The notes: generated by a model not told the origin, from the sequence alone. Numbered from the stretch's first letter, positions 22,881-26,922 are shown. The stretch: 64,000 bases of DNA from Escherichia coli (GCF_024298765.1 NZ_CP101210.1), one strand, 5' to 3'. Program-made: numbers and translations.

Positions 22881-22986
22881 TTCATACGTCCATCACCAAC
22901 TGATTGTTGTCATAACGGGTAACATAAAGGACTGAACGACTGTTTGAACCGCCCCGGGTTTCCTGGAGAGTGTTTTATCTGTGAAC

Positions 22987-25900
22987 TCAGGCTGCCAGAT
23001 CATCGTTTCCGATGGAAGCATAATAAGCTTTTTCTGCTTCTGCCGGAGGAGTATGGCCCAGCCTTCCCAGCAATCGTCGATTGTTATACCAGTCCACCCA
23101 CGTTAGTGTGGCCAGTTCCACTTCTGCACGGTTTTTCCAGCTCTTACGGTGTATTACCTCCGCTTTGTAAAGACCATTGATGCTCTCAGCCATCGCGTTG
23201 TCATACGAGTCGCCTGTACTCCCTGTTGATGCCAGTAATCCGGCTTCTTTTAGTCGCTCCGTATAGGCCAGTGACACATACTGAGAGCCTTTATCGCTGT
23301 GATGGATGGTGCCAGACGGACGACGGGCCCACAACGCCTGCTCCAGCGCATCCAGCACGAATGTCGTTTCCATAGACGATGAGACCCGCCACCCCACGAT
23401 GTATCCGGCAAACACATCAATGATAAACGCCACATAGACGAAGCCCTGCCATGTGCTGAGTAGAGTAAGAGGCAGGGCGTAGTCGGACTATTTCCCTGCC
23501 TCTCCTCCCCGAACCGGACGTGCACCTTTCAGCGCATCCGGCTCTCCATTTAAATGCTGGCGAACGCCATTGCCACTTCTGTAAAGCGTGATGTATACGT
23601 GTTTCTGGTCTCCGTCCTCAGATAGGGATTACCTTCGGGTAGCCGCCAGCGGAACAGCTTCTTGCCTTGCCCCACCAACCGGTACAGTATTTCGCCGCTG
23701 AGCTTGCCGTGATTGGTTTTACCAAATAAAACCCACGTTTTGCTCTGACCCGGTTTCGGTGATTTACACCACCACCTCATCAGGGAAGCGATACCTGTAC
23801 GGTATTTGCGGGCCAGCCAGTGAGCCAGCTTCCAGAACACGACACGGTCGATATAACTGAAGACTTTGGCCTTAAAATCAACGAACTGATAGAACATGGC
23901 CCAGCCTTTCAGTTTTCGGTTGAGTTGTTCAGCCATATCGACTTTGCTTTCACTGTAGTTGCCTGATAACAGTGCTGTCAGCGATGCGGCGAAGTTTCTG
24001 GCTTTCTCCTGCGGGATCGTTGAGACCACTCGCATCTCGCCATAACGACTGCGTTTGCGAATGATCCTGTGCCCCAGAAAGATAAAGCCGTCATTAACAT
24101 GGGTGATTTTAGTCTTATCCATGTTCAGCCTGAGTTTCAGACTGCCTTCGAGCACACCCCGACACTCCTCCCTGATGGCTTCCGCCTGTGCTTTGGTGCC
24201 TTTGACGATGAGGACAAAATCATCGGCATAGCGGCAGTACGCCACCGCGGGTTTCCACTGCCAGTTTTCTCTGACCGCCGTACTTCGGCCCCGTTGGATA
24301 CTGTTATTCCAGTACCACCGATCTTTTCTGGCTTTCCCGCTCAGGTAGCGCTCATGCAGGTATTGATCGAACTCATTCAGCATGATGTTCGATAATAGCG
24401 GCGATATAACACCGCCCTGTGGCACACCTTCACTGGCCGCCCGAAAGAGACCGACATCGATATGTCCCGCCTTGATGGTTTTCCACAGCAGAGTCATGAA
24501 ACGTGCGTCACTGATCCTGCGGCGTACAGCCTTCATCAGCAGTCGATGATGTACGGTGTCGAAGTAACTGGACAGGTCGCCTTCAATCACCCAGCGTCCC
24601 CGGGTTTCACCGCAGTCTGTGAGCTGTAATTTCACCGTGCGGATCGCGTGGTGGACACTGCGCTCAGGCCGGAAGCCATATGAGAGCGTATGAAAATCAC
24701 TCTCCCATATCGGCTCCATCGCCATCAGCATGGCCCGCTGAACAATACGATCCCGCAACGCGGGGATACCCAGTGGTCGCAGTTTGCCGTTGCTTTTAGG
24801 GATGTAAACCCGTCTGGCGGGCAAGGGCTGGTAGTGGCCTGAGAGTAATTCATCCCTGAGGATTTGCAGCTCAACAGCCAGTCTGGCCTGTAGCATTGTT
24901 TTGTTCACGCCATCAACGCCGGGGGTATGGGCCCCCTTTGATGAAAGCGTGATCCGCGCCGCTTCAGCCAGCCATTCTGGTTGTGTTATTAGACGCAGCA
25001 GCCGTTGAATCCGTAGGGACGGATCGGTGGCTGCCCATGTGGCAAGCTTGCGTTGCATTTCGCTGATTATCAAAGGTCTTCACCTCGTTAGGTCAGTTAA
25101 TTCACGTCGCAAACACATTCAAACTGCTTCCCTTCGCCATGTAATGGGCTTTCCCCATCGCGGACTACTACGGAAGCTCCGCCAGCCAGCGCGTCATCGG
25201 AGCCATGCCCCCTTAACATCCGTCGCTGACCTTCCCCGGTTTACCTGCCTGGACTCAGGCATACTGAGGAGGCTGCCCGTCGCACTCTTTATCCTTGCTT
25301 GCCGCAAGTTGGCAGAAGTCAGCAACGCAAGCGTGATAGACGCTGCTGCCCCGGTGTTTCGCATACATGTCAAAACACCTTCGACCGGCAGTGCTTACGT
25401 ATCACTACCAGTTCCTCCTGCACGGCCTGTCAGATCACGTAGGCCGTGGTGACGTTTTCAACCCACAGAGGCGGATTAACGGGTTCATGTTCTTCAGCCT
25501 TTCAGTACTTAACCTTGAGGATCATCTCGGCTTAGTGATCTCGCCTCAATCCCCGTTGTCAGCGGGTTACATCACCCTGCGGGCATGCCGCAGGTCACTG
25601 CCGCTCAGGTTCTCCACCGTCACACCCGGTGGGATTGTTGGGTTTCTCATCGTGAGTTACCGGTTCAATATTCCAGACAGACTCGCGGTTCATTTAAGCA
25701 TCCATGCCCGCCCTGAACTCCGGGCACACCGTAAGTAAAATCAGCCACCCACAGCTGGTCAGGTCGTTCTGCCACGAACTGACGGTTTACGCGGTCGCCT
25801 GCGGCAACGGCTTTCCGGCTGATGGTCGTACGGACCTTTTTACCCCGGAGAACACCGGCAAGTCCCATAACCGCCATGAGACGTGCCACTGTACATCTGG

Positions 25901-26237
25901 CCACCCTGATTCCTTCCCGTAACAACTGACGCCAGACTTTACGCACACCGTACACCTGATGATTTTCATCGTATACGCGCTGTATCTCTCTCTTCAGCCA
26001 GTCGTCGTGCTGCGCACGGGCACTGCGTTTATCCGGATGATGTCGCTGTTGCTGACAATGGTAATACGTTGACGGGGCAATATGCAGTTCGCTGCATACC
26101 GGTCCGACCCCGTACTGCTCACGCAGCTTATCCAGCAGTGGCATCATTTTTCCAGAGGCGGTCGAACTCCGCCTTCGCAAAATAAGCGGAAGCCTGGCGA
26201 AGGATATCGTTACTGCGGCGCAGTTCACGATTTTCAC
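22987..26237 (-). CDS. IS3-family transposase OrfB, interrupted by group II intron (exons 25730-26237 and 22987-23459)
   Basis: Exon 1 ends ...QLWVADFTY; exon 2 continues [24 protein letters not shown]...; joining the exons restores the frame. Confidence 0.75.
23460..25729 (-). mobile_element. group II intron (bacterial class with intron-encoded RT/maturase)
   Basis: 5-prime GTGTG at 25729; domain V GAGCCGGATGCGCTGAAAGGTGCACGTCCGGTTC at 23511-23544; 3-prime end ...CTAC at 23460; intact RT ORF inside. Confidence 0.8.
23550..25073 (-). CDS. group II intron reverse transcriptase/maturase
   Basis: 507 aa; RT motifs including YADD; C-terminal maturase-like region. Confidence 0.85.
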   Translation of the reverse strand: MIISEMQRKLATWAATDPSLRIQRLLRLITQPEWLAEAARITLSSKGAHTPGVDGVNKTMLQARLAVELQILRDELLSGHYQPLPARRVYIPKSNGKLRPLGIPALRDRIVQRAMLMAMEPIWESDFHTLSYGFRPERSVHHAIRTVKLQLTDCGETRGRWVIEGDLSSYFDTVHHRLLMKAVRRRISDARFMTLLWKTIKAGHIDVGLFRAASEGVPQGGVISPLLSNIMLNEFDQYLHERYLSGKARKDRWYWNNSIQRGRSTAVRENWQWKPAVAYCRYADDFVLIVKGTKAQAEAIREECRGVLEGSLKLRLNMDKTKITHVNDGFIFLGHRIIRKRSRYGEMRVVSTIPQEKARNFAASLTALLSGNYSESKVDMAEQLNRKLKGWAMFYQFVDFKAKVFSYIDRVVFWKLAHWLARKYRTGIASLMRWWCKSPKPGQSKTWVLFGKTNHGKLSGEILYRLVGQGKKLFRWRLPEGNPYLRTETRNTYTSRFTEVAMAFASI

Positions 26238-26469
26238 GTTCCAGCTCTTTCAGACGCTGACGTTCAGCGCTGGTGAGCCCACCATCACCGCCCCCGGTAT
26301 CCCGCTCATGCTGGCGAACCCAGACACGCAGAGTCTCCGGCGTACAGCCAATCTTTGGAGCAATGGAACAAATTGCCGCCCACTGTGAGTCATATTCATC
26401 CTGACTTTCCAGAACCATACGAATCGCCCGCTGACGGACTTCGGGGGAAAAACGAGTATTTTTAGTCAT
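26128..26469 (-). CDS. IS3-family transposase OrfA (IS629-like)
   Basis: 113 aa; HTH and leucine-zipper [21 protein letters not shown]. Confidence 0.8.
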
Positions 26470-26922
26470 CCTGTTTACCTCTTTCTCAGGGAGTTTAGTC
26501 TCCAGGATTTCCGGGGCGGTTCAAATACTGGGCGAAGGGAGATGTTATTGCGAAGCGCGCGCCAATTGGTCAGTGGGAACCTTATTCGGAAGAGTCACTA
26601 CTTGGCATCATCGTCACCAGCGTCTGTCGTATTAAAGTCGCGATGCTAAAACCTGAACCTCCCAGAGATCCCCATATCCCGCTGATGGGGGATTTTAACT
26701 AAAACTTAGCGCTATCGCTGCGTATCGTAACTATCCCGTATTACGTAGCGTAAATTATGACGCCATACGGGGAACAAATACACAGAGGAAGAAAAAGATT
26801 AGATTGGTTTTAAGGGATGTTTTTATCATAAATGGCACTGCTAAAATTATGAGATTATCGAAGATAAAATTCTTGATCATACATAAAAGGCCTCCTGAAT
26901 TAAATCAAGAGGCGTATAGTTT

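Follow-up and report, generated by a model that had tools for sequence, protein, structure and literature searches.

The window analysed here is a stretch of 64,000 nucleotides (nt) of Escherichia coli DNA (GCF_024298765.1, NZ_CP101210.1). It contains an insertion sequence (IS) of the IS3 family, of the IS629/IS1203 type, whose transposase gene orfB is interrupted by a group II intron that encodes its own reverse transcriptase (RT)/maturase. The features of this locus are collected in Table 1. We concluded that the intron is very probably a full-length, apparently intact copy of E.c.I4, located at its usual homing site in the orfB of IS629/IS1203, and that the IS hosting it is crippled by a one-base deletion. 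The intron, its homing site and its preference for IS629/IS911-related genes are already known. New in this study are the deletion in the frameshift site of the host IS (A5), an empty allele of the same IS in strain SMS-3-5, the assignment of exon-binding site 1 (EBS1) by covariation, and an enlarged class A of group II introns.

Table 1. Features of the intron-bearing IS in the window (IBS1, intron-binding site 1; ORF, open reading frame; HTH, helix-turn-helix)
Feature	Position	Strand	Remarks
IS629/IS1203-type IS3-family element with intron	22945..26523	-	3579 bp; 1309 bp without the intron
orfA, HTH part of transposase	26128..26469	-	N-terminal part of NF033516
ALIL frameshift-stimulating pseudoknot of IS3-family elements	26073..26188	-	RF01497, 115.7 bits, full length
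Slippery A-run, programmed -1 frameshift site	26147..26151	-	A5 here, A6 in intact 1310-bp copies
orfB exon 1	25730..26147	-	codons 1-139 and first base of codon 140
IBS1, CUUACG	25730-25735	-	final 6 nt of orfB exon 1
Group II intron E.c.I4, bacterial class A	23460..25729	-	2270 nt, GUGUG...AC; near-identity to E.c.I4-10
Candidate EBS2, AACGUC	25451..25456	-	intron nt 274-279; complements Asp-codon region -13..-8
Alternative exon-binding loop, CGUAAG	25394..25399	-	intron nt 331-336; perfect complement of IS629 IBS1, weaker covariation
EBS1, UGUAUG	25362..25367	-	intron nt 363-368; terminal loop of hairpin 351-377; pairs with exon -1..-6
RT (YADD) and maturase (X) ORF	23550..25073	-	507 aa from TTG; 502 aa from ATG at 25058 in PGAP
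Domain V	23511..23544	-	34 nt, AGC triad, GAAA loop; Rfam, fold, covariation
Domain VI	23462..23508	-	bulged branch-point A at 23466, 7 nt from 3' splice site; fold, covariation
orfB exon 2	22987..23459	-	remainder of rve/DDE catalytic domain, stop codon included

The intron and the interrupted transposase gene

The orfB frame starts with an ATG at 26147, and its first exon closes with ...GCTGATTTTACTTACG (GCT GAT TTT ACT TAC G) at 25730. Exon 2 opens with TCAGCACATGG (TC AGC ACA TGG) at 23459. The intron between them has the sense orientation and interrupts codon 140 in phase 1, within the rve domain. Its termini are GTGTGCCCGG...CTCTTACTCTAC, with GUGUG at 25729-25725 and ...CUAC ending at 23460, as expected for the ends of a group II intron. 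In the predicted ligated-exon sequence ...TTTACTTACG is followed directly by TCAGCACATGG. When the exons were joined in silico the orfB frame read on from ...LWVADFTY without a stop codon, and the spliced OrfB scored 316 bits with NF033516 (cutoff 160) and contained the Pfam domains HTH_21 and rve (rve at residues 127-223). Judged by homology, the D-F-T-Y motif just before the intron would carry the first catalytic Asp of the transposase.

A first-pass annotation of the window, made from the sequence alone, had described an IS3-family orfB split after ...ADFTY by a 2270-bp GTGTG...CTAC element, the removal of which restores the transposase frame. Both statements agree with the boundaries above, on the minus strand. 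The insertion was said to be precise and within an IS629-like transposase gene, and the spliced IS was found to be 100% identical, with 0 mismatches over 1309 nt, to intron-less copies; these occur in several genomes, including that of strain SMS-3-5. The intact 507-aa RT/maturase frame it reported is the TTG-start ORF at 23550-25073, which scored 341 bits with TIGR04416 (NCBI equivalog for group II RT/maturases, cutoff 300), and Rfam placed domain V at exactly the position it had given. A failure of domains V and VI to fold had been named as grounds for refutation; both folded canonically, with the covariation support described below. The annotation had not recognised the intron as the published E.c.I4 at its known homing site.

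The published copy E.c.I4-10 of strain IAI39 (NC_011750, 489783-492052) is listed with its coordinates in Table S3 of Leclercq and Cordaux 2012 (PMC3522654). It is likewise 2270 nt long and has the same first and last ten bases as the window intron, from which it differed at 2 of the 2270 nt (99.9% identity). Both differences were silent, and the encoded proteins are identical (WP_001189111.1). A 100% identical intron copy was found in strain Santai, and the intron boundaries were the same in every E.c.I4 copy examined. The genomes of IAI39, E24377A and 55989 were among those drawn on. Because of the match to a published copy the identification as E.c.I4 is direct, and not by resemblance. E.c.I4 is known to target specific positions in the transposase genes of IS629, IS911, ISEc16 and ISEc31 (PMC3522654); the window copy has its length, boundaries, class of host gene and insertion motif in common with it, and we found no difference of substance. 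S.f.I1 of Shigella flexneri is near-identical to E.c.I4 (the name used in the Zimmerly database), and the two together have been described as ORF class A, without an endonuclease region (Toro and Martinez-Abarca 2013, PMC3552965). A truncated E.c.I4 is present in E. coli K-12 as ykfC in the CP4-6 prophage, which matched intron nt 1-1764 at 99.6%. That copy lacks 500 nt at its 3' end, with the last part of the ORF and domains V and VI, and cannot splice, whereas the intron in the window is complete.

Of 5426 complete E. coli genomes, 1873 carried the intron over at least 80% of its length, in a maximum of 20 places per genome. The composite of IS and intron was found in 1403 of these genomes and in 774 plasmid records; among plasmid records with any composite match Escherichia was most frequent, followed by Klebsiella, Salmonella and Shigella. 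Since E.c.I4 and its target preference are published and roughly one in four complete E. coli genomes carries the composite, its presence in the window carries little weight as a discovery. It does raise a point of annotation, as the Prokaryotic Genome Annotation Pipeline (PGAP) splits the host gene into two pseudogene fragments around ltrA, usually in the order 'IS3 family transposase (partial)', 'ltrA', 'IS3 family transposase (partial)'.

Ribozyme structure, intron-encoded protein and target recognition

The Rfam model Intron_gpII (RF00029), whose gathering score is 40, matched positions 23460-23546 with 64.9 bits. This 87-nt segment, comprising domains V and VI, folded as the two expected hairpins with -48.2 kcal/mol (z = -6.45 relative to shuffled sequences). 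Covariation was followed over a set of eight introns, which consisted of the window copy and seven relatives (one 92%-identical variant from an E. coli plasmid and six introns from genomes and metagenomes, with proteins 69-82% identical). In domains V and VI together 99.6% of 264 cells were in standard pairs and 8 pairs were compensatory, a result that was matched in 0 of 500 shuffles. Domain V was paired in 100% of its cells, one pair varying between G-C, U-A and C-G, and domain VI in 99.2%, with 7 compensatory pairs and an invariant bulged A. The minimum free energy fold of the 5' 650 nt had a z of -2.6 and was too poor for placing the EBS loops. As far as can be read from its sequence, the intron appears to have every hallmark of splicing competence, and it is plausibly active.

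The intron protein is full length and the same as that of the copies in strains IAI39 and 55989. In the Pfam search only RVT_1 (residues 86-332) and GIIM (residues 356-421) were detected, and no HNH (D/En) endonuclease domain, in agreement with the description of class A (PMC3552965). The TTG start codon lies 7 nt downstream of a GAGGTG Shine-Dalgarno sequence. Around the protein start (25050-25086, minus strand; alignment columns 806-838) the stretch GAGGTGAAGACCTTTGATAATCAG-N-GAAATGCA showed one variable position in the eight class A introns, and it probably represents the domain IVa site for protein binding and translation control. Because of this conserved start region and the 7-nt spacing we argue that the TTG start, giving 507 aa, is the real one.

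Chromosomes, plasmids and prophage contigs of E. coli supplied seven distinct target variants of the E.c.I4 type. All seven were cut at GAY NUN ACN UAY R/UC, where the slash marks the insertion site, that is after the codons for D-x-T-Y and one additional base. The same junction was used in IS629/IS1203, IS911-like elements, ISEc15 and others, and every 3' exon began with TC. Many independent insertions at one motif were observed in different ISs. A scan of viral contigs yielded almost solely E.c.I4 itself and was of use for target variants, not for covariation.

In the window copy three intron segments are complementary to the final 6-7 nt of the exon. We assigned EBS1 to the one at 25362-25367 because of its covariation over the eight class A introns: 87.5% of the cells in the six EBS1-IBS1 pairs were paired, and 5 of the 6 pairs were compensatory. 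When nt 363-368 and the closing stem were tested jointly, 0 of 500 shuffles were as good, and the hairpin stem itself covaries. Against each of the E. coli target variants this EBS1 formed 5 or 6 of its 6 pairs, and a mismatch recurred only at -5, where the Thr codon has its third base. Its bases U363 and G364 are opposite the two target positions that vary, -1 being G or A and -2 being C or U. An A immediately precedes EBS1 and a U opens the 3' exon in each of the eight introns, and this invariant couple would fit a delta-delta' pair.

Another of the three segments, nt 263-269 (UGUGGGU), wobble-pairs with all targets and had 78.6% of its cells paired, but 136-199 of 500 shuffles equalled it; it was rejected as EBS1 because it is conserved sequence without covariation. 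When every exon and intron offset was scanned for EBS2, the only matches were of conserved to conserved positions. The IS3-family pseudogene neighbouring the host IS (~20456-22046) contains an unoccupied D-I-S-Y site, GACATCAGCTATT/TG, at 21443-21456 on the plus strand. We considered it as an empty homing site, but with just 3 of 6 pairs to EBS1 it is a poor target.

The host insertion sequence and its empty allele

The left end of the host IS, TGAACCGCCCCGG, is located at 26523 and its right end, ...CCGGGGCGGTTCA, at 22945, the tail of the right end reading ...GGGGCGGTTCA. The terminal inverted repeats end in TG...CA, as is required in the IS3 family. In a BLAST search with the composite as query the majority of matches stopped at query position 3579-3580. 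The IS had initially been thought to start at 22935; the 10 nt before 22945 are flanking sequence. With IS629/IS1203, of the IS3 group within the IS3 family, the element shares the terminal repeats, the layout of orfA and orfB, the ALIL pseudoknot and the rve domain, and its identity to copies assigned by PGAP to the IS1203 family was 99.9-100% (copies identical to the spliced form are labelled 'IS3-like element IS1203 family transposase'). It differs from IS629/IS1203 in being one base short in the slippery A-run and in having no target-site duplication (ATT/AAC). The host IS is a defective member of IS629/IS1203, and not a non-member.

After splicing in silico the IS measures 1309 bp and the intact copies 1310 bp, the absent base being in the A-run of the frameshift site. 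We aligned the frameshift region with the copies of strains SMS-3-5 and 222, and A5 against A6 was the single difference from the 1310-bp copy. The stop codon of orfA is displaced because of this deletion, so that OrfA here has 113 aa and the terminus ...LWKNDATAG, whereas intact copies terminate in ...DRLWKK. Because the run is A5, orfB is in the +1 frame relative to orfA instead of the -1 frame that the programmed frameshift of the IS3 family uses, and a -1 slip is therefore unable to fuse OrfA with OrfB despite the intact ALIL pseudoknot. PGAP annotates the identical empty copy of SMS-3-5 as a 'frameshifted' pseudogene and the 1310-bp copy as 'programmed frameshift'. On the 5' halves of intron-split copies the label 'frameshifted' is not diagnostic alone, as it is also given to A6 copies in strain 55989; our A5 call was based on the sequence alignment and on the full-length empty copy. 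The first-pass annotation had raised the possibility of a still active host IS, which is not supported for this copy in view of the A5 run, the +1 position of orfB and the 'frameshifted' label of the empty copy. The IS is probably not autonomously active even once it is spliced, as no OrfAB would be expected, and with both ends intact it could be mobile solely with transposase supplied in trans.

The right flank of the intron-less copy in SMS-3-5 matched the window at 2942 of 2944 nt, and that copy is bordered by a 3-bp target-site duplication, AAC/AAC (the SMS-3-5 flanks compared were L002 2940-3000 and 4310-4369). In the window the IS is flanked by ATT on one side (26524-26583) and AAC on the other (22885-22944), so that no duplication is seen. 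The left flank adjoins ythA/nanY and differs from that of SMS-3-5. Because the left flank differs while the right flank is shared, we concluded that the left side was rearranged later in the lineage of the window. This is one IS copy, empty in SMS-3-5 and occupied in the window. The A5 deletion predates the intron, because the empty SMS-3-5 allele has A5 too; the IS was accordingly frameshifted before the intron entered it or was copied into it. Together the window and SMS-3-5 form a clean pair of occupied and empty sites, which records a recent intron gain by such an IS.

Activity and origin of the intron and the extent of class A

In the mechanism that we propose, the intron RNA would be co-transcribed with the IS and folded with the help of its own protein, and splicing by branching at the bulged A would restore the orfB mRNA. 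The lariat-protein particle would then reverse-splice into other IS3-family transposase genes, recognising GAY-NUN-ACN-UAY-R/UC via EBS1 (UGUAUG), probably an EBS2, and the A-U delta pair. Since U363 and G364 can wobble at -1 and -2, a single intron would be able to invade several IS3-family elements. Priming of the cDNA from nascent DNA at replication forks would be expected, because the endonuclease domain is absent. The model for mobility of this type is RmInt1 of Sinorhizobium meliloti (class D/IIB3), cited in PMC3522654 (refs 44, 66). Its protein has 419 aa compared with 502-507 aa in E.c.I4. Like E.c.I4, RmInt1 lacks the endonuclease, is specialised in an IS transposase gene and spreads by retrohoming; unlike E.c.I4 it belongs to another intron class and has another IS target, ISRm2011-2.

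Several points weigh against this interpretation of the intron and its host. No Rfam subclass model of domains I to IV (D1-D4) matched the 5' two-thirds of the ribozyme at E <= 1, and support for domains I-III came from conservation among the class A relatives only, strong as this conservation was. The assigned EBS1 forms 5 of 6 pairs with IBS1 in the window copy, while nt 331-336 is its perfect complement. The EBS2 candidates, nt 274-279 and 188-194, pair with exon positions -8 to -13/-14 and gave no convincing covariation. Among the accessible papers we found none showing splicing of E.c.I4 in vitro or in vivo, and literature searches on group II introns in connection with ykfC or IS1203 returned nothing relevant on splicing. 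The expected priming at replication forks is borrowed from RmInt1 and other introns that have no endonuclease. As for the host IS, weak transcriptional slippage at the A-run could in principle yield some OrfAB.

The intron might be an inert relic of E.c.I4 that neither splices nor moves and is carried passively with the IS and the genomic island. The host IS was already a pseudogene, transcription across such a dead IS may be weak, and the surroundings consist of decayed mobile elements (the IS3-family pseudogene, an orphan intron fragment, IS5 and IS10). Inactivated copies of E.c.I4 within large mobile elements have also been reported by Leclercq and Cordaux (PMC3522654). We nevertheless consider this unlikely, given a full-length protein identical to the versions of IAI39 and 55989, intact domains V and VI, EBS1 and splice sites at both ends, and only 2 differences in 2270 nt from a copy that belongs to a strain with a recent expansion of E.c.I4 to 15 copies. 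Distinctly unlikely, in our judgement, is that the target is recognised mainly by the 331-336 loop (CGUAAG) as EBS1, and not by nt 363-368. That 9-nt loop, closed by a 9-bp stem, makes 6 of 6 Watson-Crick pairs with the IS629 IBS1 CUUACG, and in the class A relative L010 the homologous loop (UGUAGC) pairs with IBS1 at 6 of 6 positions and the 363 loop of that intron at 3 of 6. Over the eight introns, however, only 70% of its cells were paired and 30-65 of 500 shuffles did equally well; on targets of the IS911, ISEc15 and IAI39 types, all demonstrably occupied by E.c.I4, it formed only 4-5 of 6 pairs. The divergent target AAUGGU of the relative L008 was matched at 6 of 6 positions by its 363 loop (ACCAUU) alone. 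The 331-336 segment may be a second exon-binding loop, or the usage of EBS1 may be lineage-specific.

How the intron reached the IS is a separate question, and instead of retrohoming it may have been acquired by homologous recombination or gene conversion with an intron-bearing IS629/IS1203 copy, several of which are often present in one E. coli genome. Chimeric host ISs exist, which indicates that recombination via intron copies does happen: a 'chimeric IS629/IS911' is listed in Table S2 of PMC3522654, and in one viral contig (L022; IMG/VR 643348547_000005, intron 416-2685) an exon 1 of the IS629 type is joined to an exon 2 of a different IS3-family element, TCTGGGCAGG. The latter is most simply explained if intron copies located in two ISs of different kinds recombined. 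An exchange of the left flank of the host IS relative to SMS-3-5 points in the same direction. Against this, the empty SMS-3-5 copy matches both exons with 100% identity and shares the private A5 deletion, which lies 417 nt upstream of the intron, so that gene conversion would require a short tract or an identical donor; E.c.I4, moreover, is documented to retrohome into exactly this motif (PMC3522654). Acquisition by recombination thus appears quite improbable to us, and an apparently intact E.c.I4 at its usual homing site is the reading that we retain.

Class A was cited in 2013-2014 as three near-identical members (PMC3552965, among others). It now comprises more than 100 clusters at 68-86% protein identity, and the relatives, besides supporting the assignment of EBS1, show the class to be far larger than the three members cited. 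Named sources include Rahnella, Microbulbifer, Endozoicomonas, a Legionella plasmid and Photobacterium. Of six relatives that were fetched, three (L010, L012 and L013, from metagenomes and the Legionella plasmid) split genes between HTH_21 and rve. A preference for IS3-family transposases seems to be a property of class A, and not of E.c.I4 only. Much more tentative, and in our opinion doubtful, is the wider proposal that class A introns overall have specialised in parasitising IS3-family transposase genes, far outside the Enterobacteria too, and are aimed at the codons of the first catalytic Asp (D-x-T-Y). If this were true, production of IS transposase would depend on splicing.

The window is dense in mobile elements. 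An orphan fragment of 140 nt from a different group II intron is located at 30558-30697 on the plus strand (Rfam group-II-D1D4-4, 67.2 bits, full model). It lies beside ORFs that are remnants of an IS66-like element, with no RT ORF and no domain V or VI nearby, and looks like a decayed intron remnant. A 326-aa ORF at 32361-33341 on the minus strand encodes what we take, by eye, to be a transposase of the IS5 type. The antisense RNA-OUT of IS10 was detected at 61036-61105 on the plus strand with 98.8 bits.

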